Source of the DNA: a virus
Lineage: Duplodnaviria > Heunggongvirae > Uroviricota > Caudoviricetes
IMG/VR virus record: IMGVR_UViG_2585427763_000004
DNA: 47,112 bases
Direction: 5' to 3' (one strand)
Shown: positions 5,125-43,000 of the stretch, piece after piece
How positions within the stretch are numbered: the stretch's first letter is position 1
Layout: each line of letters begins with the position of its first letter
Notes under the pieces: model-generated
What the model was told of the DNA's origin: nothing
Databases searched by the model: none
Seen by the model: only the letters and a program-made list of their open reading frames with translations
Translations under genes and position numbers: made by a program

Positions 5125-5775
5125 ATGCGCCGTGAATGATTTCGGGTTTCCACGCCCGGCACCCGTTTTATGAGGTGCAGGTGCACTATAATTCCACCCG
5201 TTCTGGTTTTCAATAGCTACATTCAACATTTTCTCTACCTTTCATCACCGAAGTGAACTTTGTTGATGCGGTGCCTGGTGCCTCCAGGTGACGTTAACCA
5301 GTTAACAATTAACGTCGGATACAGAGCATTCCCGTTACGCCCGTAAAAGACCGCTTGTTTTAACTGTTCCGCGTGCGCTGAGCCGCATTCACCGCATCAC
5401 AAAATTCACTTTAAAAAGGGCGGCAGAGCAGTCACGGAGTAGAACTGATACCGCCAAAAGTCACCAGAAAATTGATAACAGAGGGCGTTGCAGCGGAGTT
5501 GTCACTTAAGCGTATGGTCAACCTGACAACCCGGTGTCCTCAACGGGGGAAGGAATAACCCCGCCATACTTACCGCCGCGCCATTTCGCGGATTGCCACA
5601 ACCGGAAGCGCACGATCGAATTAAATTTAACGACGACCTATACAGAGAGACTAACTTCTCCGGGCGCTTTCGTGTTATGCCCTGACTTTTCAGGGATATA
5701 TCCTTTTCAGTAAACTGTCAGTGCCGGATTCTTATCCGTGTCCGGCGCACGCACTCTACCTCACCTGTGAATAAA

Positions 5776-6162
5776 TTAATGATTAATTGATATTTTGTTG
5801 TTTGATTCAACTTTCCCATCGGATGTGTGATGCTTTAAATCACAGGAATTAATACTGCTCGCTGTAAAATGATTTTCAAGGGGAGCTATTCGAATCCCTT
5901 TCTTTTTCATTAACAAGCCAAATCCTTTATTAATGATGTCCATTAATTCCAGGAAGTATTTTTCATGTAAATCCTGGTTATCAGAGAGCTGCTTCTCTTC
6001 GTACAGACCGATAAAGGCACGACGCACGTTACCGGATATAGTATCGATGGTTTCTTTTTCTACGGTACTCAGGTCAAGAGTCGCCAGTTGAGAGCGAACC
6101 ACATTCGATGCCATTTCCTGGAATGGTACTGGTAAATCTTTAAATTCCATCGTCAACCTCAT
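5776..6162 (-). CDS. Hypothetical protein (early-left operon)
   Basis: 128-aa ORF. Its start overlaps the stop of the upstream 50-aa ORF (TGATG-type coupling). An alternative start at MEFK, 12 nt downstream, is possible. Confidence 0.45.
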   Translation of the reverse strand: MRLTMEFKDLPVPFQEMASNVVRSQLATLDLSTVEKETIDTISGNVRRAFIGLYEEKQLSDNQDLHEKYFLELMDIINKGFGLLMKKKGIRIAPLENHFTASSINSCDLKHHTSDGKVESNNKISINH

Positions 6163-6314: not shown

Positions 6315-6567
6315 GCTGACCTCATTTCCCCTTAACGCCGGGTGGCGGAACTAAAACCTACAGCGCCGTGCTGTTCTTGATAGAAATATTAGTAACGCGG
6401 ATATTTTAAGTCAACAGTATGGCGTATGATATTTTTGATTTGGTAACTATGTAAATGTTTTTTCAAGGGAAAAATATTAGTTATACAGCTGATTTGCAGA
6501 AGTTATGGCACAAAAAAACCAACTAAGACGTCGGTTTTTTTGTTGTGGATGGGGTAGTGAGCGGTGG

Positions 6568-7029
6568 CTACTGGTTACGTTTCTTTAGTGCCAGCATGTT
6601 CTCGAAGGCTTCCTCGTAGAGCTTGTTTAGTCCACGTAGCTGGTTAAGGAGTTTGGCTTTTTCTGACGCAGGTAGAATCTCGAAGAGGTTAAGTAACTCT
6701 GCCTGTTCTTCATTGACCAGCCTCCATCCTTTGCCTGAAAAGTTATCATCATAAGTATCTGATGATCTTACATAATTCATTAAGTCTTTAAGGTCTTCTC
6801 GAATGTCCTCTGGTTTTACCTTTAACAGAGCCGCAAATTTTAGCGCAGCGTCGGTATTTACCGGTATCTTGCCGTTCAGATACTGGCTAACGGTGCCTTG
6901 AGATTCGAATCCCAACAACTCAGCCGCCAGCTCTTGAGTCAGCTTCAGCTCTTTTTTTCTTGCATTCCATGCGGCTTTTAAATTCTTGCTCGCTTCTGGA
7001 GTTGCAATCACTTCGCGTGTTTTTTTCAT
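6568..7029 (-). CDS. Prophage repressor, HTH XRE/CI-type, without S24 peptidase domain
   Basis: 153-aa ORF with an N-terminal helix-turn-helix (LTQELAAELLGFESQGTVSQYLNGK). Divergently oriented to a Cro-like gene. No Ala-Gly/Ser-Lys autocleavage module visible. Confidence 0.75.
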   Translation of the reverse strand: MKKTREVIATPEASKNLKAAWNARKKELKLTQELAAELLGFESQGTVSQYLNGKIPVNTDAALKFAALLKVKPEDIREDLKDLMNYVRSSDTYDDNFSGKGWRLVNEEQAELLNLFEILPASEKAKLLNQLRGLNKLYEEAFENMLALKKRNQ

Positions 7030-11156: not shown

Positions 11157-11579
11157 ATGAAAATGACTGAATTAACAAAAGAACAATTAATCGAAGAAGC
11201 CAAATTAAAAATAGCGATTACGAAATGCCACCCCAATTCAGGGATGGCGCGAGTAGAGGGCGAGTTATTCAAAATTGCACTGGCATCGCTGGAAGCAGAG
11301 CCGATAGCGTGGCGATATCGCTACGTGAAAAAAGGTGTTATGGACTCTCAGGGGGAGTTGTGGGTTGGTGACTGGAAATATGTACCGAAAAAAGAGGATT
11401 GTAACGACAGGCCGAACTATGAAATTCAGGCCTTATTCACTGCCCCACCAGTCCCGGTTACATCAGAAGAACTGGTTAAAGCTGTGCACTTTTATGAACA
11501 ACTAAAACGCGAAAATCCACCAGCATCCGGCAACCAGATTAATGGGTTAACTATGCCGGTTAAACGACCAGCCGACTGA
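11157..11579 (+). CDS. Hypothetical protein
   Basis: 140-aa ORF with a plausible RBS context. No motif recognised. Confidence 0.45.
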   Translation: MKMTELTKEQLIEEAKLKIAITKCHPNSGMARVEGELFKIALASLEAEPIAWRYRYVKKGVMDSQGELWVGDWKYVPKKEDCNDRPNYEIQALFTAPPVPVTSEELVKAVHFYEQLKRENPPASGNQINGLTMPVKRPAD

Positions 11580-11790
11580 AAAACGGAAACCTGATTACAG
11601 ATTCCCAGATAAGGCAATGAGCTACCTGGCGTAGAGTGGGCTGATAAGTATGGGGAATGTTTTACGATGAATATTTAGACTAAAGAGTTTGTAACGCTAT
11701 GTAAGTGATTTTTTCTGGTTTAGATATTTATATGTCCGGCCAAATTGAGGTGTGTTTAAATGTAATTGCACATTGATTGTAGGGGGAATA

Positions 11791-11970
11791 ATGAAAAACG
11801 CATTGCAGTTTTTGTTTGTTGCGTTCTGGTTGTTCGCATCATGTATGCCCATCATCTTCACAGCAAGGTATATGGAAAAAATTGATGTTTTGATATTAAT
11901 GTTTGGACATATAAATGCCCTTTTTTTAGGGGTGTTCATGGCGGTCACGTGCATTGAATACTGGCGGTAA
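11791..11970 (+). CDS. Small hydrophobic protein (2 predicted TM helices) in an AT-rich island
   Basis: Track ORF 11752..11970. Internal ATG at 11791 is preceded by AGGGGGA. Product MKNALQFLFVAFWLFASCMPIIF... Low-GC context. Confidence 0.3.
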   Translation: MKNALQFLFVAFWLFASCMPIIFTARYMEKIDVLILMFGHINALFLGVFMAVTCIEYWR

Positions 11971-12229
11971 ATACAGCGAACGCTATTGGTTTAGTTGGAT
12001 ATTTACTGTGCCGGACAAAAACGGTTTGCAGGGAAATCTTAGTTAAGTAGAATGACTGTGGGTGCTTGAGGCTATCTGTCTCAGGCATGAACACCAAAAG
12101 GCAGATAGAGAAAAGCCCCAGTTAACATTACGCGTCCTGCAAGACGCTTAACATTAATCTGAGGCCATATCTATGCTCTACACACGTAGGTTAGCCTCTT
12201 ACGTGCCGAAAGGCAAGGAGAAGCAGGCT

Positions 12230-17112: not shown

Positions 17113-17212
17113 TCACAAACCGCCATTAGCTTATCAGGAAGAGCAGACGACACGATAACAGGGTTGTTGGTGCGGGGGCGGGTCCCCGATGACGGTCCAT
17201 TATCGGTATTCA

Positions 17213-17289
17213 GCGTTGTTAGCTCAGCCGGACAGAGCAATTGCCTTCTAAGCAATCGGTCACTGGTTCGAATCCAGTACAGCGCGCCA
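17213..17289 (+). tRNA. tRNA-Arg (anticodon UCU)
   Basis: 77-nt cloverleaf folded by hand. Acceptor GCGTTGT/ACAGCGC (one G-U), anticodon stem ATTGC/GCAAT with loop CUUCUAA, T-loop TTCGAAT, 3' GCCA. Confidence 0.85.
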
Positions 17290-17396
17290 TATTCATTCTT
17301 CCAGATTCCTTTCGGCAGAGCCTTATACTGAAATATACCTGGCTCAGGATATTGTTGAAAATATTATATGTTTGTCAAAAATAAAAGTTCTGTTAA

Positions 17397-17753
17397 GTGT
17401 TGATTGAGTGTTTGTTATACGGTCTAATGGTTTTTTCAGCATTAAATATTTATCATTCATATGGTGTGGGTAGAGTGAATATTGATGAGGCGTCGGGGTG
17501 TTTCATCCTTAGGCAGCGTATTGATATAGTCAATGCAGAACGAGCAAAGGCCTTCAGCCGTTTGACAGTTTTGTTCTGTACTCCTGATCGTCTTTCGGGA
17601 AGAGACGTTATTATTCTGAATAGTGATGCTATACAGAGGGTTTGCGATGAGTTCATGGTGGCTAATTCAGAATTATTTGCTCTTGTTCAGGAGTACAACA
17701 GAATAGCCAGGACCTGTGGTATGGATGAACTTCGGATTACTCATCTGGGGTAG
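17397..17753 (+). CDS. Hypothetical protein (AT-rich cargo region)
   Basis: 118-aa ORF in a low-GC segment downstream of the tRNAs. Start codon uncertain (track uses GTG). No motif recognised. Confidence 0.3.
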   Translation: MLIECLLYGLMVFSALNIYHSYGVGRVNIDEASGCFILRQRIDIVNAERAKAFSRLTVLFCTPDRLSGRDVIILNSDAIQRVCDEFMVANSELFALVQEYNRIARTCGMDELRITHLG

Positions 17754-18146: not shown

Positions 18147-18175
18147 GCCCCTCTCCGGAGGGGCTGTTTATATTG
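18147..18175 (+). terminator. Rho-independent terminator
   Basis: Perfect 7-bp stem GCCCCTC tccg GAGGGGC followed by TGTTTATATTGATTTT. Confidence 0.55.
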
Positions 18176-18200
18176 ATTTTGTCAGATGTGAGTAAACTCC

Positions 18201-18536
18201 TTATGGACTTTGTTGTTTTAGCCCATAAGGACATATTTGCAGAGTGCAACGGTTATTAAAGCATTCATTCAATACGTTATCTGTATTTGTAGGGCATTCC
18301 TGGCTGTTTTTGATTAAATTCCAGAATGTTTTATTGAATGGTACTACGTTGTAAATGGTTACAGGCAGCACTTTGTTATTGAGCATGATGCCTGTGTGAG
18401 TCAGTGTAAATATACTTTCAGGAGGTAAGAAAGCATCCGATTGATACCAGATTATTAATTTTATTTTACTCCATATGACTGAAAAAGATATTCCGCATGA
18501 TGGCTGGATAACTGTATCAATCACAATCCACTTCAT
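18201..18536 (-). CDS. Hypothetical Cys-containing protein (AT-rich, opposite strand to late operon)
   Basis: 111-aa ORF, low GC. C-terminal cysteine cluster [27 protein letters not shown] long open frame in AT-rich DNA is unlikely by chance. Confidence 0.35.
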
Positions 18537-18796
18537 TTAGTTTCCTTGTTTATGCCTTGCTGGTGATGTTCTGAAAAGTATAAATGATATTTTTGATTGT
18601 AAACCATAGAGCAGAATTATTTTTCTGATGTTGTTTATTGTTTATTTAAATGCAGGGTGGTTTATATCTCGTCTTGTAGTTTATCCATGCATATCTGCTT
18701 GATGATGAGGTTTTTAATTAAGGTATGGTTTTGTGTTTTTTCTGTATTACATGTCAGGTATTTTAAAGAATCATTTTTCAGATGGTGGAAAGAACC

Positions 18797-20650
18797 ATGG
18801 CATTTAAACACTATGATGTTGTCAGGGCGGCGTCGCCGTCAGATCTTGCGGAAAAGCTGACACATAAACTGAAAGAGGGCTGGCAGCCGTTTGGTAGTCC
18901 GGTGGCCATAACCCCTTATACCCTGATGCAGGCGATTGCAGCAGAAGGTGATGTGGTCGTCAGTGGTGCAACTGAGCCGGAGTGGTACTACGTCATCGTA
19001 CTGGCCGGGCAGTCCAATGCCATGGCTTACGGTGAAGGGCTTCCGCTTCCGGATTCATACGATGCGCCCCATCCGCGCATTAAGCAACTGGCCCGTCGTA
19101 ACACAGTGACTCCCGGTGGTGAAGTATGCGTATTTAACGACATCATTCCTGCTGACCATTGTCTGCATGATGTTCAGGATATGAGTACGATTAACCATCC
19201 CCGGGCTGACCTGAGCAAAGGGCAGTACGGCTGTGTCGGACAGGGCTTACATATTGCCAAAAAACTGCTTCCGTATATCCCTAATAACGCGGGGATCCTG
19301 CTGGTACCATGCTGTCGTGGTGGTTCGGCATTCACCCAGGGCACGGAGGGGACATTCAGCGAGTCCACGGGGGCCAGTCAGGATTCGGCTCGCTGGGGAG
19401 TGGGTAAGCCGTTATATCAGGATCTGCTTTTCCGCACGAAGGCAGCATTGCAGAAAAACCCGAAAAACGTTTTGCTGGCGATATGCTGGATGCAGGGGGA
19501 ATTCGATATGACGAATGCCAGTTACGCCCAGCAGCCAGCAGCATTTCTTGCAATGGTACAGCAGTTCCGTGCTGACCTTGCCGGGCTGGCGGCGCAGTGT
19601 CACGGTGGAAGTCCGGCATCAGTCCCCTGGATTTGTGGCGACACGACATACGCGTGGAAACAAGAACACGGTACGCAATATGAAGTGGTATATGGTGCAT
19701 ATAAAGGTAAAGAATCCCAGCAGATTTATTTTGTTCCCTTTATGACCGATGGTAGCGGAGTTAATACACCGACAAACAACCCGTCAGAAGATCCTGATAT
19801 TGTCGGGTCTGGTTATTACGGTTCGGCATCCCGAACGAACAAAAACTGGGTATCATCAAATCGCCCGACGCATTTCAGCTCATGGGCGCGTCGTGGCATT
19901 ATTCCCGATCGTATGGCAACCGCTATTCTGAACGCAGCCGGGCGCACCTCAGCCTTCATCAGTGGTAAGGCACCGGAAATCAAACCCTCGCCCGGCGGCG
20001 ACACGCCATCGGGTCCGTCTGCAGATACGTCCGTTCGCACAATCTCCCTGCTGCCGACAGCCGGAGAGGCTGCTGCGCAGGGCTGGAGCATTAAGAATGG
20101 CGGAATTCAGTTGTCAGATGGTGTATTTAAGATCACCAAGCAGAGCAATAAAGCCTGGTCCCTGACGCGCCCGGTGGATGACGCAGTCTCCCTGCTGACA
20201 CGGGGTGGCAGACTGAGCTGTAAGTTTCGACTGTCAGGCGCACTGACCAACAACCAGTTCGGTCTGGGAATTTATCTGTATACCGATGTAGCGTTACCTG
20301 ACGTCGTGGCGATGACCGGGACTGGTAACCCGTTCCTGATGTCGTTCTTCACCCAGACCACAGACGGCAAACTGAATCTGATGCATCACAAGAAAGCCGG
20401 AAACACAAAGTTGGGCGAGTTCGGGAATTACAGTAACGACTGGCAGACGCTGGAGCTGGTGTTCACCGCCGGCAGTGCCACGGTTACTCCGAAACTGAAT
20501 GGAGTGGCTGGCCCGGCATTCCAGGTCATAAAAGACAGTCTGACAGTGGGACTAAATGCACTGACGCTGACGGATATTACCAAAAATGCAACGTATGGCG
20601 TTGAGATAGAAAGTCTGGTGCTGGAGATAAATGCACCGGCATCATCATAA
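18797..20650 (+). CDS. nanS: NanS-p-like sialate 9-O-acetylesterase (DUF1737 N-terminal domain + SASA/SGNH esterase domain)
   Basis: Track ORF 18782..20650; the ATG at 18797 gives [21 protein letters not shown] (DUF1737-like). Esterase block [17 protein letters not shown] with the GQSN motif. Occupies the slot downstream of tRNAs/stx in Stx-type phages (recalled). Confidence 0.7.
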
Positions 20651-22221: not shown

Positions 22222-22686
22222 ATGAACCGCGTACTGTGCGTGGTCATCATTGCCCTGCTGGTGGCCTGTGGTGCGCTTAGTCTGGGGCTGAATCATTACC
22301 GTGATAACGCCATTACCTACAAAGCCCAGCGCGACAAAAATGTCAGAGAACTGAAGCTGGCGAACGCGGCAATTACTGACATGCAGATGCGTCAGCGTGA
22401 TGTTGCTGCGCTCGATGCAAAATACACGAAGGAGTTAGCTGATGCGAAAGCTGAAAATGATGCTCTGCGTGATGATGTTGCCGCTGGTCGTCGTCGGTTG
22501 CACATCAAAGCAGTCTGTCAGTCAGTGCGTGAAGCCACCACCGCCTCCGGCGTGGATAATGCAGCCTCCCCCCGACTGGCAGACACCGCTGAACGGGATT
22601 ATTTCACCCTCAGAGCGCGACTGATAATAATGCAAAAACAACTTGAAGGGGCACAGCTATACATTCGAGAGCAATGCCTCAGATAA
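22222..22686 (+). CDS. Rz: Rz i-spanin (inner-membrane spanin subunit)
   Basis: 154-aa ORF. N-terminal TM helix, coiled-coil-like periplasmic domain. Contains an embedded +1-frame lipoprotein ORF (Rz1). Confidence 0.8.
22442..22624 (+). CDS. Rz1: Rz1 o-spanin (outer-membrane lipoprotein), embedded in Rz
   Basis: 60-aa ORF wholly within Rz in another frame. Lipobox LVVVGC, proline-rich mature part ([16 protein letters not shown]). True start may be an internal Met. Confidence 0.7.
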
Positions 22687-22993
22687 AAACCGGCCAAGGA
22701 TAATCCGCTGAAGATTCGCCGGTGGCTAAAGTGTGCCAAGAGTTCAATTTACGCAATTACTCCTGTCGATGCTATGCACCGTCTTTGTGAAGTCAATGGA
22801 TACCTGATTTATTTCTGTGCGCTGTATCGTCGCTGTACTCTTGCATTAATTATGACTGTAGCCTGACGGGGAACTCCTTCTGCACAAGTGTGGGGGAATA
22901 ATCAAAAACGATGCACACCGGGGTTACCGGGTACACATATTTCATCATGCCAGCGAGTCCGGTTCTGGTACGGAAGAAACCGGACGTTATGAT

Positions 22994-23404
22994 TTAGTGC
23001 GGAAATATTTGTGTAGTGTTCTGAATGTTCTCAGTAAAGAGTAATGAATTATCAAAGGTATAGTAATATCTTTTGTTTTCGTGGATATTTGTAATCCATC
23101 TGAAAACCCCTGCTGTAGCAAGATTTTTCCTGTATTCGTAAAATGATAACTCTCCTGATTTGAATCCTTTTAAGGTGGCTTCTATAAGGCATTTATTTTT
23201 TGAAAATCTTACATTTACAACCTTACCCTGTCCTTTTATTAAAACCGTATTATCGTTTTCAAGAACAAGATGAATATTCTCTGTGGCTAAATAGTAAATG
23301 TAATGTGAGACATTGTGACGTTTTAGTTCAGAATAAAACCAGTGATAGTTTAAATTATTTCGCACTTTATCGAATATTTGTTTAAAAATGGCAACCTGAG
23401 CCAT
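22994..23404 (-). CDS. Hypothetical protein (low-GC moron; YbcV/DUF1398-like position, tentative)
   Basis: Track ORF 22994..23419; likely start at MAQVAIFKQ (136 aa). AT-rich. Occupies the bor/ybcV slot between the lysis genes and cos. Confidence 0.4.
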
Positions 23405-23461
23405 TGTAGTACCTTCCATGTGATATGAGGGGGCGTAGTCTGCACGATTATCTAAATTGCT

Positions 23462-23695
23462 TCAATCTGGTCTGACCTGTTTTCTGAGCAATTCAGTAAT
23501 GTCACTCTTTTCTTTGTTTGCTTCAGGCGAAACTCTTTTTTCTGAGCACAGTCTCCGGCGGCAGGCTTCAATGACCCAGGCTGAGAAATTCCCGGACCCT
23601 TTTTGAACAAGAGCGATGTTAATTTGTTCAATCATTTGGTTAGGAAAGCGGATGTTGCGGGTTGTTGTTCTGCGGGTTCTGTTCTTCGTTGACAT
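23462..23695 (-). CDS. Ribbon-helix-helix (Arc/CopG-like) DNA-binding protein
   Basis: 77-aa ORF. RHH-like segment RNIRFPNQMIEQINIALVQKGSGNFSAWVIEACRRRL. Immediately upstream, on the same strand, of the 136-aa ORF. Confidence 0.45.
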   Translation of the reverse strand: MSTKNRTRRTTTRNIRFPNQMIEQINIALVQKGSGNFSAWVIEACRRRLCSEKRVSPEANKEKSDITELLRKQVRPD

Positions 23696-23894
23696 GAGGT
23701 TGCCCTGTATTCAGTGTCGCTGATTTGTATTGTCTGAAGTTGTTTTTACGTTAGGTTGATGCAGATCAATTAATACGATACCTGCGTCATAATTGATTAT
23801 TTGACGTGGTTTGATGGCCTCCACGCACGTTGTGATATGTAGATGATAATCATTATCGCTTTACGGGTCCTTTCCGGTGATCCGACAGGTTACG

Positions 23895-23906
23895 GGGCGG
23901 CGACCT
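23895..23906 (+). other. cos: cosN cohesive-end site (12-nt GGGCGGCGACCT identical to phage lambda)
   Basis: Exact 12-mer GGGCGGCGACCT, followed by CGCGCGTTTTCACTATTTATGA, closely resembling the lambda left end as recalled. About 215 bp upstream of the terminase small-subunit gene. Confidence 0.8.
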
Positions 23907-24122
23907 CGCGCGTTTTCACTATTTATGAGATTTTTTGAGGGGGTGGTTGTTGTTTAATTGTTTGGTATATCTAATTGATAAGTAAGGTGAAAATAAAATA
24001 AATACAACAACCTTACGATGTGTTTTGATGTCGTCAATGCGAAAAATGTCAATGATATCAAATGGTTTTGCAAAAACACATGGTTGTTGTTTCGCTTTTT
24101 ATCGATGACTTATGGAGAGGAG

Positions 24123-24629
24123 ATGGCCTTTTTATTGAATAAAAGTGATATGGCCTCCTCCATCGGTATCTCTGTTCAGGCATTTGATAAATGGGGCGTT
24201 CCTCCTGTTGAACGTCGGGGGAGGGAAGTTTTATATGACGTTAAAACTGTACTGGAGATAGATCGCGAGCGGCGACAACACAATCAGAGAACACCTGATG
24301 ACGGGGGAGAACTGGAGGAAAGGCTGCTTCGGGCCAGAGCTGAACTGACAGAAGAACAGGCTGTAGCTCAAAAACTTAAAAATCAGGTAACCGAAGGTAA
24401 GCTCATCGATTCAGACTTCTGCGTTTTCGCCCTCAGCAAACTGGCGATGGCATTGTCCAGTACGCTTGATTCCATTCCGTTATCCATGCAGCGACAGTTC
24501 CCGGATTTAACGCCACGTCATATTGACCATCTGAAAACCCTTATTGCAAAGGGCGCAAATCAGTGTGCGCGGGCAGGGGATAAATTACCGGATTTGCTGG
24601 ATGAATATATCAGAGCAACAACTGAATAA
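24123..24629 (+). CDS. nu1: Terminase small subunit (Nu1-like)
   Basis: Track ORF 24018..24629. The ATG at 24123 is preceded by GGAGAGG. Aligns by eye with lambda Nu1 (EVLYD..., FCVFALSKLAMALSSTLDSIPLSMQRQFPDL). Confidence 0.85.
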   Translation: MAFLLNKSDMASSIGISVQAFDKWGVPPVERRGREVLYDVKTVLEIDRERRQHNQRTPDDGGELEERLLRARAELTEEQAVAQKLKNQVTEGKLIDSDFCVFALSKLAMALSSTLDSIPLSMQRQFPDLTPRHIDHLKTLIAKGANQCARAGDKLPDLLDEYIRATTE

Positions 24630-38249: not shown

Positions 38250-38993
38250 ATGACAGAGACAGAATCAGCGATTCTGGCGCACGCCCGGCGATGTGCGCCA
38301 GCGGAGTCGTGCGGCTTCGTGGTGAGAGCGCCGGAGAGGGAAAGATATTTCCCCTGCGTGAATATCTCCGGTGAGCCGGAGGCGTATTTCCGTATGTCGC
38401 CGGAAGACTGGCTGCAGGCAGAAATGCAGGGTGAGATTGTGGCGCTGGTCCACAGCCACCCCGGTGGTCTGCCCTGGCTGAGTGAGGCCGACCGGCGGCT
38501 GCAGGTGCAGAGCGATTTGCCGTGGTGGCTGGTCTGCCGGGGGGCGATTCACAAGTTCCGCTGTGTGCCGCATCTCACCGGGCGGCGCTTTGAGTACGGG
38601 GTGACGGACTGTTACACACTGTTCCGGGATGCTTACCATCTGGCGGGGATTGAGATGCCGGATTTTCATCGCGGGGATGACTGGTGGCGTCACGGTCAGA
38701 ATCTCTATCTTGACAATATGGAAGCTACTGGTTTTTACCGTGTCGCACTGACAGAGGCGCAGCCGGGCGATGTGCTGCTGTGCTGTTTTGGTTCATCGGT
38801 GCCGAATCACGCCGCCATTTACTGCGGCGACGGTGAGCTGCTGCACCATATTCCTGAACAACTGAGTAAACGAGAGAGGTATACCGACAAATGGCAGCGA
38901 CGCACACACTCCCTCTGGCGTCACCGGGAATGGCACGCATCTGCCTTTACGGGGATTTGCAACGATTTGGCCGCCGCATCGACCTTCGTGTGA
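38250..38993 (+). CDS. K: Tail assembly protein gpK (JAB/MPN + NlpC/P60-like)
   Basis: Track ORF 38208..38993; start at MTETESAIL (38250) matches the lambda K N-terminus. HSHPGG (JAB-type) motif present. Confidence 0.9.
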   Translation: MTETESAILAHARRCAPAESCGFVVRAPERERYFPCVNISGEPEAYFRMSPEDWLQAEMQGEIVALVHSHPGGLPWLSEADRRLQVQSDLPWWLVCRGAIHKFRCVPHLTGRRFEYGVTDCYTLFRDAYHLAGIEMPDFHRGDDWWRHGQNLYLDNMEATGFYRVALTEAQPGDVLLCCFGSSVPNHAAIYCGDGELLHHIPEQLSKRERYTDKWQRRTHSLWRHREWHASAFTGICNDLAAASTFV

Positions 38994-39532
38994 AAACGGG
39001 GGCTGAAGCCATCCGGGCACTGGCCACACAGCTCCCGGCGTTTCGTCAGAAACTGAGCGATGGCTGGTATCAGGTACGGATTGCCGGGCGGGATGCAGGA
39101 GAAACCGAATTATCATCCCGTCTTAATGAGCCGCTGGCAAATGGTGCCGTGATCCACATCGTGCCGCGTCTTGCGGGAGCAAAAAGTGGCGGTGTGTTTC
39201 AGGCGGTGCTGGGTGCGGCGTTGATTGCTACGGCAATCTGGATGCCGGGGATCAGTATCGCTTTCAGTGACATTCTCTTTTCAATGGGTGCGGCGATGAC
39301 GCTTGGTGGTGTGGCGCAGATGCTGGCACCGAAAGCCAGAACTCCCCGTACACAGACAACGGATAACGGCAAACAGAACACCTATTTCTCCTCACTGGAT
39401 AACATGGTTGCCCAGGGCAATGTCCTGCCTGTTCTGTACGGTGAAATGCGCGTGGGGTCACGTGTGGCATCTCAGGAGATCAGCACGGCAGATGAAGGGG
39501 ATGGTGGTCAGGTTGTGGTAATTGGGCGGTAA
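38891..39532 (+). CDS. I: Tail assembly protein gpI
   Basis: 213-aa ORF. N- and C-terminal regions near-identical to lambda I as recalled (MAATHTLPLASPGMARICLYGDLQRFGRRIDL ... TDNGKQNTYFSSLDNMVAQGNVLPVLYGEMRVGSRV). Overlaps the K 3' end as in lambda. Confidence 0.9.
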   Translation: MAATHTLPLASPGMARICLYGDLQRFGRRIDLRVKTGAEAIRALATQLPAFRQKLSDGWYQVRIAGRDAGETELSSRLNEPLANGAVIHIVPRLAGAKSGGVFQAVLGAALIATAIWMPGISIAFSDILFSMGAAMTLGGVAQMLAPKARTPRTQTTDNGKQNTYFSSLDNMVAQGNVLPVLYGEMRVGSRVASQEISTADEGDGGQVVVIGR

Positions 39533-39604
39533 TATTATTTACTCATGTTCTAACTGATTTAATATTTATATCGAACACTGATAATTATTCTATTGGTTAG
39601 CTAT

Positions 39605-39943
39605 ATGAACAAAACGATTTTATTCTGCACGATTATTGCCTTAACAGGATGTAAATCTTTGGATTACGTAAAATCCGGAAAACCTGTAATGGAAGGTAAT
39701 TCATTAAAAAATATTGATGAATTGTCAGGCTGCATATCCAGACAATGGGCTGGTAATGGAACACCTATAACATCCCTTCCTATTGAGAATGGGGTAAGCC
39801 TTTTAGTTCCACAGGCTATGGGGGGATATGATGTTGTGCTTGATATCAAAAAAGCAGGAAATGGCAGTAGTTTTACTCTTTATGAACGTGTACCAGCATT
39901 AACGCCAAAAATTTTTGCTGATAGTGTTAATGCATGTAAATAA
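39605..39943 (+). CDS. Lipoprotein of unknown function (moron between I and J)
   Basis: Track ORF 39593..39943; start at MNKTILFCTIIALTGC (39605) gives a signal peptide plus lipobox LTGC. AT-rich codon usage in a GC-rich tail operon. Flanked by an AT-rich upstream region and a terminator. Confidence 0.6.
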   Translation: MNKTILFCTIIALTGCKSLDYVKSGKPVMEGNSLKNIDELSGCISRQWAGNGTPITSLPIENGVSLLVPQAMGGYDVVLDIKKAGNGSSFTLYERVPALTPKIFADSVNACK

Positions 39944-39968
39944 TAGTTAATCCTGCCGTAACTCATGA

Positions 39969-39994
39969 GCCGCCTTTTGGGCGGCTTTGTTGTT
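39969..39994 (+). terminator. Rho-independent terminator after the lipoprotein gene
   Basis: GCCGCCttttGGGCGGC followed by TTTGTTGTTT. Confidence 0.6.
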
Positions 39995-40009
39995 TATGGA
40001 GTGTGAGGA

Positions 40010-43000
40010 ATGGGTAAAGGAAGCAGTAAGGGGCATACCCCGCGCGAAGCGAGGGACAACCTGAAGTCCACGCAGCTGCTGAGTGTGATCGATGCCATCA
40101 GCGAAGGGCCGGTTGAAGGTCCGGTGAATGGGTTAAAAAGCGTGCTGCTGAACAGTACGCCAGTGCTGGACAGTGAGGGGAATACCAATATCTCCGGTGT
40201 CACGGTGGTGTTCCGGGCAGGTGAGCAGGAGCAGACACCGCCGGAGGGATTTGAATCCTCCGGCTCCGAGACGGTGCTGGGTACGGAAGTGAAGTACGAC
40301 ACGCCGATTACCCGGACCATCACGTCTGCAAACATCGACCGTCTGCGCTTTACCTTCGGTGTGCAGGCACTGGTGGAAACCACCTCAAAGGGGGACCGGA
40401 ATCCGTCGGAAGTCCGCCTGCTGGTTCAGATACAGCGTAACGGTGGCTGGGTGACGGAAAAAGACATCACCATTAAAGGCAAAACCACCTCACAGTATCT
40501 GGCCTCGGTGGTGGTGGGTAACCTGCCGCCGCGCCCGTTCAATATCCGGATGCGCAGGATGACGCCGGACAGCACCACAGACCAGCTGCAGAACAAAACG
40601 CTCTGGTCGTCATACACCGAAATCATCGATGTGAAACAGTGCTACCCGAACACGGCACTGGTCGGCGTACAGGTGGATTCGGAGCAGTTCGGCAGCCAGC
40701 AGGTGAGCCGTAATTATCATCTTCGCGGGCGAATTCTGCAGGTGCCGTCGAACTATAACCCGCAGACGCGACAATACAGCGGTATCTGGGACGGAACGTT
40801 AAAACCGGCATACAGCAACAACATGGCCTGGTGTCTGTGGGATATGCTTACCCATCCGCGCTACGGCATGGGGAAACGTCTTGGTGCGGCGGATGTGGAT
40901 AAATGGGCGCTGTATGTCATCGGCCAGAATTGCGACCAGTCGGTGCCGGATGGCTTTGGTGGCACGGAGCCGCGTATCACCTGTAATGCGTACCTGACCA
41001 CGCAGCGCAAGGCGTGGGATGTGCTCAGTGATTTCTGCTCTGCGATGCGCTGTATGCCGGTATGGAACGGGCAGACGCTGACGTTCGTGCAGGACCGACC
41101 GTCGGATAAGGTGTGGACCTATAACCGCAGTAATGTGGTGATGCCGGATGATGGTGCGCCGTTCCGCTACAGCTTCAGCGCCCTGAAGGACCGCCATAAT
41201 GCCGTTGAGGTGAACTGGATTGACCCGAATAACGGCTGGGAGACGGCGACAGAGCTTGTGGAGGACACGCAGGCCATTGCCCGTTACGGTCGTAACGTCA
41301 CGAAGATGGATGCTTTTGGCTGTACCAGCCGGGGGCAGGCACACCGCGCCGGGCTGTGGCTGATTAAAACAGAACTGCTGGAAACGCAGACCGTGGACTT
41401 CAGCGTGGGTGCCGAAGGGCTTCGCCATGTACCGGGCGATGTCATTGAAATCTGCGATGATGACTATGCCGGTATCCGCACCGGCGGGCGCGTGCTGGCG
41501 GTAAACAGCCAGACCCGGACGCTGACGCTCGACCGTGAAATCACGCTGCCATCTTCCGGCACCACGCTGATAAGCCTGGTTGACGGGCAGGGGAGTCCGG
41601 TCAGCGTGGAGGTTCAGTCCGTCACCGACGGCGTGAAGGTGAAAGTGAGCCGTGTTCCTGACGGCGTTGCTGAATACAGCGTATGGGGGCTGAAGCTGCC
41701 GACGTTGCGCCAGCGCCTGTTCCGCTGCGTGAGTATCCGTGAGAACGACGACGGCACGTATGCCATCACCGCCGTGCAGCATGTACCGGAAAAAGAGGCC
41801 ATCGTGGATAACGGGGCGCACTTTGACGGCGACCAGAGCGGCACGGTAAATGGTGTCACGCCGCCAGCGGTGCAGCACCTGACCGCAGAAGTCACCGCAG
41901 ACAGCGGGGAATACCAGGTGCTGGCCCGCTGGGACACGCCGAAGGTGGTGAAGGGCGTGAGCTTCCTGCTTCGCCTGACCGTGGCAGCGGATGACGGCCG
42001 TGAGCGGCTGGTCAGCACGGCCCGGACGACGGAAACCACTTACCGCTTCACACAACTGGCTCTGGGGAACTACAGGCTGACAGTCCGGGCAGTAAATGCG
42101 TGGGGGCAGCAGGGCGATCCGGCGTCGGTATCGTTCCGGATTGCCGCACCGGCAGCGCCGTCGCGGATTGAGCTGACGCCGGGCTATTTTCAGATAACCG
42201 CCACGCCGCATCTTGCGGTTTATGACCCGACGGTACAGTTTGAGTTCTGGTTCTCGGAAAAGCGGATTGCGGATATCAGGCAGATTGAAACCGCAGCCCG
42301 CTATCTTGGCTCGGCGCTGTACTGGATAGCTGCCAGTATCAATATCAAACCGGGCCATGATTATTATTTTTATATCCGCAGTGTGAATACTGTTGGCAAA
42401 TCGGCATTCGTGGAGGCTGTCGGTCGGGCGAGCGATGATGCGGAAGGTTACCTGGATTTTTTCAAAGGCGAGATAGGGAAAACACATCTGGCCCAGGAGC
42501 TGTGGACGCAGATTGATAACGGTCAGCTTGCGCCTGATCTGGCTGAAATCAGGACGTCCATTACGAATGTCAGCAATGAAATCACGCAGACCGTCAATAA
42601 AAAACTGGAAAATCAGAGCGCGGCAATCCAGCAGATACAGAAAGTTCAGGTTGATACAAATAATAACCTGAACAGCATGTGGGCCGTGAAACTGCAGCAG
42701 ATGAAGGACGGACGCCTTTATATTGCGGGTATCGGAGCCGGTATTGAGAATACGCCAGCAGGTATGCAGAGTCAGGTGCTTCTGGCTGCTGACCGGATTG
42801 CGATGATTAATCCTGCGAATGGCAACACAAAGCCGATGTTTGTTGGTCAGGGCGATCAGATATTCATGAACGAAGTGTTCCTGAAATACCTGACGGCTCC
42901 CACCATTACCAGCGGCGGTAATCCTCCTGCATTTTCCCTGACACCGGACGGAAAGCTGACCGCTAAAAATGCAGATATCAGTGGCAGTGTGAATGCGAAC

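Follow-up and report, generated by a model that had tools for sequence, protein, structure and literature searches.

An AT-rich insert between tail genes I and J of a lambda-like prophage carries a mobile PHROG 914 lipoprotein gene, a possible envelope exclusion factor

What is a lipoprotein gene doing in the tail operon of a lambda-like prophage, how did it come to lie there, and what might its product do for the phage or its host? We took up this question for IMG/VR virus record IMGVR_UViG_2585427763_000004, a stretch of 47,112 nucleotides (hereafter, the window) that is a lambda-like E. coli prophage with an integrase at its left end and a NanS-like esterase in its late region. Its tail genes come in the order V, G, T, H, M, L, K, I, J, with lom next. 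A model's reading of the letters alone (the sequence-only reading) had pointed to positions 39533-40009, between I and J, as a self-contained AT-rich cassette that encodes a 112-amino-acid (aa) lipoprotein and brings its own rho-independent terminator. We found that the gene was acquired horizontally and is accessory, loosely speaking a moron, with its seat in the late tail operon, and that its product belongs to PHROG 914. We tentatively read the protein as an exclusion factor of the cell envelope.

The insertion could be delimited against phages whose site is empty. From the stop codon of I to the start codon of J at 40010 the window has 477 bases, against 60 in lambda, where the gap is geneless, as the sequence-only reading had said. 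Homology to the empty-site phages PhiR49_1star, ev099 and lambda ends at the I stop codon and restarts at a hairpin before J. The lambda junction reads TGA-tgcaaaatgttttatgtg-AAACCGCC-tgcg-GGCGGTTT-tgtcatttatggagcgtgaggaATG, and that of the window reads TAA-(431-bp insert)-GAGCCGCC-ttt-GGGCGGCTT-tgttgtttatggagtgtgaggaATG. An AT-rich foreign cassette is thus present between I and J, with empty sites that align on both sides, but the insert proper stops at 39963, and the hairpin beyond it, previously counted as part of the cassette, is resident. The G+C content (GC) of the insert is 0.341, compared with 0.56-0.59 in its flanks. The contrast in codon usage with the tail operon was also borne out: the lipoprotein open reading frame (ORF) has a GC of 0.363 and a GC at third codon positions (GC3) of 0.239, compared with a GC3 of 0.57-0.67 for H, M, L, K, I, and J. 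The homologues of Klebsiella, Enterobacter, and phage Fraca are likewise lower in GC than their own flanks. Coordinates of the features are collected in Table 1.

Among E. coli alleles, 11 synonymous and 6 non-synonymous polymorphisms were counted, at a density that is alike in leader, ORF, and tail, which shows the gene to be under purifying selection; we counted the residues conserved across ~125 PHROG 914 clusters as a further sign of this. Together, the empty-site alignments, the full-length match to PHROG 914, and the polymorphism pattern establish that the insert is genuine and that its ORF is not a product of chance. The sole length polymorphism of the leader is a 1-nt indel at 39538 (leader base 6, in the T/A run right after the I stop), at which 23 of 59 E. 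coli cassettes (~40%), including those of UTI89, O104:H4, and ATCC 11775, differ from the window. Other readings of the insert were considered and set aside. An upstream TTG start at 39593 would place only four extra residues before the signal peptide, and homologues begin at the ATG. The antisense ORFs 39633..39764 and 39664..39849 were judged to be at chance level, as was a minus-strand promoter-like site at 39940-39911 (2 sites seen, 2.0 expected), and an Rfam scan of the insert returned only a sub-threshold GcvB match, which we took as chance.

The protein itself is as first described, a 112-aa lipoprotein with a signal peptide and an LTGC lipobox. Its N-terminus, MNKTILFCTIIALTGC followed by KS, comprises a basic n-region, a hydrophobic core, and the lipobox, and the signal peptide MNKTILFCTIIALTG-C fits the pattern [LVI][ASTVI][GAS]C, as do those of 49 of the 53 family members. 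The match to PHROG 914 runs end to end (E = 7.3e-33; residues 1-112 against profile positions 1-118 of 118), and an exhaustive profile search recovered 125 cluster representatives, nearly all 105-125 aa long. When 53 sequences were aligned, the mature part measured 96-108 aa, the lipobox Cys, Cys43, and Cys111 were invariant, and P27, K35, W48, and G63 were nearly so. Asp never occurs at +2 among the 49 members with a lipobox that could be parsed, and 42 of these have exactly two further Cys. Lys occupies +2 here, so the protein lacks the Asp that signals Lol avoidance in Enterobacteriaceae. Lipobox and +2 residue together point to sorting to the outer membrane, and Cys43 and Cys111 probably form a single periplasmic disulfide between helix 37-50 and the C-terminal helix 103-111.

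An AlphaFold2 model of the protein (predicted local distance difference test 83.7, predicted template-modelling score 0.76) has a beta-alpha-beta4-alpha arrangement, and its fold neighbours are generic helix-grip, DUF302, KA1, and Bet v 1-like domains. Among viral models, a protein of Pseudomonas phage phiAH14a comes closest (template-modelling scores, TM, of 0.70/0.83), and the best neighbour overall is Flpp3, given as a Francisella virulence determinant in its PDB entry. No Pfam family matched the lipoprotein at E ≤ 1, Lambda_Bor included, and none was usable among the 53 members; the NCBIfam match to VirB7 (E = 0.08) is confined to the signal peptide; and neither the single sequence nor the profile found more in the PDB than signal-peptide or chance matches.

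We found the 431-bp insert in 337 of 5,426 complete E. coli genomes (~6%) at 98-100% identity, always annotated as ‘hypothetical protein’ (locus tags UTI89_RS29190 in UTI89 and O3K_RS14155 in O104:H4). Carriers include UTI89, O104:H4 2011C-3493, O55:H7 CB9615, the type strain ATCC 11775, avian pathogenic E. coli (APEC), and O111, and are also frequent among commensal, animal, and environmental isolates. When 50,697 phage records were searched, the cassette DNA had no megablast match, and relatives of the protein turned up by tblastn in Fraca and LMessi only. The I and J flanks match 147 of these records, all without the insert, and lambda is empty as well. Three of 61 E. coli-type copies are frameshifted (L068 and L069 near codon 74, L070 at several places).

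The position of the gene varies. In E. coli it lies at the I-J junction. Homologues at the K-I junction occur in Klebsiella, Kluyvera, Jejubacter-like, and metagenomic prophages (48-62% identity) and in phage Fraca (~31%), and homologues at the junction of chaperone gene T and tape measure gene H occur in HK97-like prophages of Enterobacter, Citrobacter, and Salmonella. More distant members sit beside an HTH_3 repressor gene in Burkholderia, on the opposite strand inside a replication module, and on an island by alaS-csrA; a scan of genome contigs returned one locus only. With three tail junctions and several non-tail positions, and with the gene absent from lambda and most relatives, the possibility raised earlier that the ORF is a conserved tail component does not hold. 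Morons have been defined as extra DNA between adjacent genes, with deviant composition, their own promoter and terminator, and expression from the repressed prophage (PMC3594210, after Juhala et al.). Two of these traits are found here, namely extra DNA between genes adjacent in relatives and a composition unlike that of the neighbours.

At one K-I junction (L071, 2060-6910), the lipoprotein homologue is the penultimate gene of a 4.8-kb island that also contains Arc/Mnt-like ribbon-helix-helix, Bro-N/Ant-like, KilA-N-like, and XRE-like ORFs and an unrelated second lipoprotein (6406..6855, 149 aa). This layout resembles P22 immI, the seat of sieA. Separately, a metagenomic prophage that has the lipoprotein gene at K-I carries a different moron at I-J (L093, 6217-6894), a 225-aa multi-pass membrane protein of Pfam family 8xMP. 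The I-J gap is thus a recurrent site for cargo.

The second element of the supposed cassette, its own rho-independent terminator, fared less well. A 9-bp GC-rich stem at 39967-39987 followed by TGTTGTTTAT scored as terminator-like (-15.4 kcal/mol, z = -3.7), but the same hairpin, by position and sequence, precedes J in lambda, which has no moron here (window 39962-40009; lambda, L089, 761-805), and the two are equal in stability (-15.2 kcal/mol in lambda). A GC hairpin, a T-run, and TTTATGG stand directly 5' of the J start in every other lambdoid tail locus that we read, moron or not, namely Klebsiella (L002, 7015-7050), Enterobacter (L006, 12300-12335), Fraca (L009, 10008-10040), L080, L082, and L092, none of which has a cassette at that junction. 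Since lambda and the other lambdoids bear this hairpin, the supposed terminator is a resident feature of the I-J junction. A similar hairpin with a T-run is also found 3' of the homologous lipoprotein gene at K-I and T-H, junctions that normally abut, and the hairpin therefore accompanies the gene in general. It may move with the gene or mark a landing site. Terminator-like hairpins before J, and morons that land beside such hairpins, bear on how morons move. The pre-J hairpin may be an attenuator or an mRNA-stability element within the late operon, and possibly a favoured joint for moron insertion.

We next considered how the gene might be expressed. A consensus scan of the coding strand of the window gave no sigma-70-like promoter of at least 9/12 upstream, and a scan of the 180 nt 5' of the gene, covering the window and 14 homologous loci, found none adjoining it, although a weak or non-sigma-70 promoter would escape such a scan. 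The description of the cassette as self-contained is not supported by these scans. By eye, 8/12 candidates can be picked out in the leader, TTTACT(39538)-16-TAATAT(39560) and TTTAAT-16-GATAAT(39580), a number expected by chance in so AT-rich a stretch. At three K-lipoprotein-I loci only 32 nt separate the K stop from the lipoprotein ATG, and these include an AGGAG Shine-Dalgarno sequence, which suggests translation from a late polycistronic message. In a Burkholderia gladioli prophage (L083), a perfect LexA box, TACTGTACATAAATACAGTA, lies at 6891-6910, between the HTH_3 repressor gene and the homologue and ~90 nt 5' of the ATG of the latter (7001); none of 200 shuffles yielded such a box. Judged from this site, expression of the B. 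gladioli member would be SOS-induced. Taken together, the missing promoter, the 32-nt gaps, and the LexA box hint that the gene is expressed upon induction or in late infection and not in the quiescent prophage. At Enterobacter T-lipoprotein-H loci (L006, 5970-6000; also L073 and L077), the Shine-Dalgarno sequence GGAGG of the lipoprotein gene may pair with a CCTCC that lies 5' of it (aaCCTCCttacttctGGAGGtgtgaaaATG), and the resulting hairpin could control translation.

We next asked whether the lipoprotein and J vary together, on the premise that a protein that blocks the receptor of its own phage should co-vary with the receptor-binding C-terminus of J. In the 59 E. coli-type loci compared, the lipoprotein keeps 99-100% identity, while the C-terminal 249 aa of J are 54-100% identical and fall into at least four classes; the tape measure is 27-100% identical across the same loci. 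Intact 99-100% alleles accompany at least four J C-terminal types (L017, L031, L049, L057, L060, L016, L044, L054, and L040), and relatives of ~50% identity accompany J proteins from 1,186 to more than 3,000 aa. A classical receptor-matched mechanism is unlikely because one allele (at least 99% identity) goes with such different J C-termini. The uncoupling favours either an action in the envelope that is independent of the receptor or a function unrelated to phages.

Taking this evidence together, we estimate a probability of about 0.4 that the lipoprotein is an outer-membrane, periplasm-facing envelope exclusion factor, whose expression would probably accompany that of the late operon or follow induction. 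The insertion, export signals, family membership, junction mobility, purifying selection, and uncoupling from the J C-terminus are established above; the outer-membrane location, the disulfide, the time of expression, and the exclusion function are inferences. The disulfide-stabilised alpha/beta domain of ~96 aa would face the periplasm, and the lipoprotein would act on the cell envelope to hinder the entry of incoming phages (superinfection or ‘lytic-conversion’ exclusion), probably at a step independent of the receptor that the resident J tip recognises. Its gene would most likely be transcribed by read-through of the Q-antiterminated late operon, so that induction is when the protein would be made. 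If lysogens express it at all, a weak putative promoter in the AT-rich leader would be the source, and such a transcript, not being antiterminated, would be halted before J by the resident hairpin. By analogy, the exclusion reading is in line with T5 Llp, the lipoproteins of mEpimmI coliphages, the HK97 gp15 slot, and the immI-like island with its second lipoprotein.

Several observations weigh against an exclusion role. The uncoupling of allele and J C-terminus weakens this role in its simplest form, in which the protein blocks the receptor of its own phage. The C-terminal 249 aa of the window J are 96% identical to those of J in the VT1-Sakai and PPompW prophages, which thus have the same J tip without the lipoprotein gene, and phage Fraca has a family member together with a separate cor gene. 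The sequence-only reading had suggested a search for Cor-like homology, but the known exclusion lipoproteins align with the family profile in the signal peptide alone: Fraca Cor over 30 columns, Lpp021 of phage mEp021 over 20 columns (hhalign probability 45%), and T5 Llp (8a60_B) with neither sequence nor fold homology. A search of five family members against PADLOC-DB gave no meaningful match to a defence model. Every source names members only as hypothetical, lipoprotein, or phage protein, and our literature search found no paper on the family.

The most serious rival is that the protein benefits the host as a lysogenic-conversion factor in the manner of Bor/Iss/Lom, through serum resistance, adhesion, envelope stress tolerance, or permeability. 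Such a function would be independent of the receptor-binding end of J, as is seen here, and a known host-interaction moron, lom, is one gene removed from it. Extraintestinal and diarrhoeagenic strains are among the carriers (UTI89, O104:H4, O55:H7, APEC, and O111), distant members lie on non-phage islands, and Flpp3 is a virulence determinant according to its PDB entry. However, commensal, animal, and environmental isolates often carry the gene as well, and the protein matches neither Lambda_Bor nor any other Pfam family. Lysogenic expression would require a promoter of which the consensus scan detected none, and the family lies overwhelmingly within late tail operons and includes one member with a LexA box, which speaks for induction rather than the quiescent lysogen. 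We consider a conversion factor rather unlikely.

We regard with greater doubt a Cor/Llp-type blocker matched to the receptor, which would mask the outer-membrane protein bound by the J tip from the periplasmic side and so guard against superinfection and against loss of progeny on debris. The gene is immediately 5' of the receptor-binding gene J, the protein has a lipid anchor and a conserved Cys pair as in Llp (PMC9586334), and lipoproteins of the mEpimmI structural cluster exclude phages that use the same receptor (PMC11893012). The L070 copy, which adjoins a divergent J C-terminus (56% identity), is a pseudogene. Nevertheless, the intact near-identical alleles beside at least four J types, the range of J lengths beside ~50% relatives, the phages that share the J tip and lack the gene, and the want of Cor/Llp homology outside the signal peptide all count against it.

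A role as a lysis or release accessory, in which a late outer-membrane lipoprotein aids or times the disruption of the outer membrane in spanin-like fashion or modulates vesiculation at burst, would be consistent with probable co-transcription with late genes and with the predicted outer-membrane anchor. We find it highly improbable. The window has a lysis cassette of its own ~17 kb upstream, which includes a gene in the spanin position (22222..22686), the protein is a folded alpha/beta domain and not a short proline-rich o-spanin, it has no C-terminal transmembrane segment, and the gene is dispensable in most relatives. Finally, a tail assembly or virion component, which the location in the tail operon and the shared orientation might suggest, is effectively refuted, because an exported lipoprotein (Sec/Lsp signal) cannot take part in cytoplasmic tail assembly and because the gene is missing in lambda and in 147 records of related phages, varies in position among tail genes, has members outside tail modules, and is frameshifted in some copies.

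The exclusion reading can be taken one step further, to a version that we hold to be distinctly improbable. PHROG 914 lipoproteins would then be a new class of receptor-independent entry blockers of Gram-negative siphophages, in which an outer-membrane-tethered periplasmic domain, made late or on induction, intercepts a conserved step of tail-tip penetration or DNA delivery, and whose gene hops between hairpin-marked junctions of the tail operon. Candidate targets would be the tape measure, tip proteins, or a shared host factor. If a receptor-independent block is indeed what these proteins exert, the host range of therapeutic phages in clinical Enterobacteriaceae would be affected and a new fold would join the exclusion repertoire; relatives are found in Klebsiella, Enterobacter, Citrobacter, Salmonella, and Burkholderia. 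If the protein is not an entry blocker, it is one more hypothetical moron. Exclusion or host-interaction roles have emerged time and again for accessory genes in prophage tail operons (HK97 gp15, Cor, and Lom). The kind of gene is unsurprising, and the family is new in that it is unrelated to the known exclusion lipoproteins.

Table 1. Features of the I-J region of the window, with the evidence for each
Feature	Coordinates	Strand	Evidence
Left flank: tail assembly protein I homologue	38891..39532	+	Pfam Lambda_tail_I, E = 4e-24
Inserted cassette, 431 bp	39533..39963	+	Alignment with empty sites of PhiR49_1star, ev099, and lambda
AT-rich leader, 72 nt, GC 0.22; weak promoter-like hexamers, weak Shine-Dalgarno sequence	39533..39604	+	Consensus scan and reading by eye
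Lipoprotein gene, 112 aa, WP_001332187.1 ‘hypothetical protein’, PHROG 914 member	39605..39943	+	Profile match, model, polymorphism
Signal peptide and lipobox LTGC; Cys16 codon 39650-39652; +2 Lys, +3 Ser	39605..39652	+	Sequence and family alignment
Cys43 (39731-39733) and Cys111 (39935-39937)	39731..39937	+	Invariant in 53 sequences; helices from model
Resident pre-J hairpin GAGCCGCC-TTT-GGGCGGCTT and T-rich tail	39967..39997	+	Terminator-like, common to lambda and other lambdoid tails
Right flank: central tail fibre / host-specificity protein J, 1159 aa	40010..43489	+	ATG at 40010

Elsewhere in the window, further AT-rich islands are candidates for additional morons. They lie at 18151-18900, 22901-23550, 11501-12050, 5651-6050, 17201-17650, and 23751-24250, with a GC of 0.30-0.37 compared with a window mean of 0.52. 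One holds a 110-aa ORF without assignment (18201..18536, minus strand) just upstream of the NanS-like esterase gene, and another a DUF1398 gene (22994..23419, minus strand) 3' of the lysis genes.

How does this gene compare with systems already described? The resemblance to Flpp3/DUF3568 and to the N-terminal domain of BamC, which share the helix-grip, appears to be one of fold only (6-12% identity; no Pfam DUF3568 match in the 53 members). Unlike the gene of an Rz1-like o-spanin, which adjoins or is embedded in an i-spanin gene, ours is found among the tail genes, ~17 kb away from the lysis genes, and these have a ‘lysis protein’ gene of their own. The Tai tail-assembly-interference proteins are cytoplasmic and encoded elsewhere, and we set them aside as irrelevant. 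We also considered an immunity protein for the NlpC/P60 domain of K, as the gene most often follows K, and rejected it because K acts in cytoplasmic tail assembly and the gene is also found away from K.

Lambda Bor/Iss and Lom are, like the present protein, accessory outer-membrane proteins of prophages; Bor, also a lipoprotein, is of about the same size, and the lom gene of the window is found just 3' of J. The Bor gene is located in the lysis region and is expressed in lysogens. The protein differs from Bor in having no match to Lambda_Bor in Pfam. In phiAH14a, a lipoprotein gene between K and I was called Cor-like by its authors' speculation (PMC4936722). The phiAH14a protein is a member of PHROG 914, and membership of PHROG 914 gives a name and no mechanism.

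The closest functional precedents are found among exclusion proteins. In mEpimmI coliphages, the lipoprotein genes Lpp021 and Lpp010 lie in the structural cluster, their expression from a plasmid excludes phages, and the exclusion tracks receptor usage (OmpA and LamB) (PMC11893012). Lpp021 is thus, like the present gene, a lipoprotein gene within the structural gene cluster of a temperate coliphage; it differs in its length of 72 aa and its place downstream of J on the opposite strand. T5 Llp is lipidated, faces the periplasm, is disulfide-bonded, shuts FhuA by reverse allostery, and is encoded beside the receptor-binding protein gene; Llp and Cor are small lipoproteins of the outer-membrane inner leaflet with an intramolecular disulfide (PMC9586334). 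Our protein shares with Llp and the Cor family (T1, phi80, N15, and HK022) the targeting signals, an invariant Cys pair, and a gene that adjoins that of the tail fibre or receptor-binding protein. To judge by the alignments, Cor, Llp, and Lpp021 are functional precedents and not relatives.

HK97 gene 15, the first moron to be described, lies between the tail chaperone (G/T) and the tape measure, and its product is a small inner-membrane protein that excludes superinfecting phages without blocking a surface receptor, with promoter and lysogenic expression both shown (PMC3594210). A promoter and lysogenic expression are known for gp15 only, and gp15, unlike the present protein, is not a lipoprotein. 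If PHROG 914 lipoproteins do block entry independently of the receptor, gp15 and the Gram-positive Ltp would be functional analogues of unrelated fold. As with gene 15, an extra gene of deviant composition is found in a siphovirus tail operon, its uncoupling from J suggests a receptor-independent action like that of gp15, and its Enterobacter homologues hold exactly the gp15 slot.

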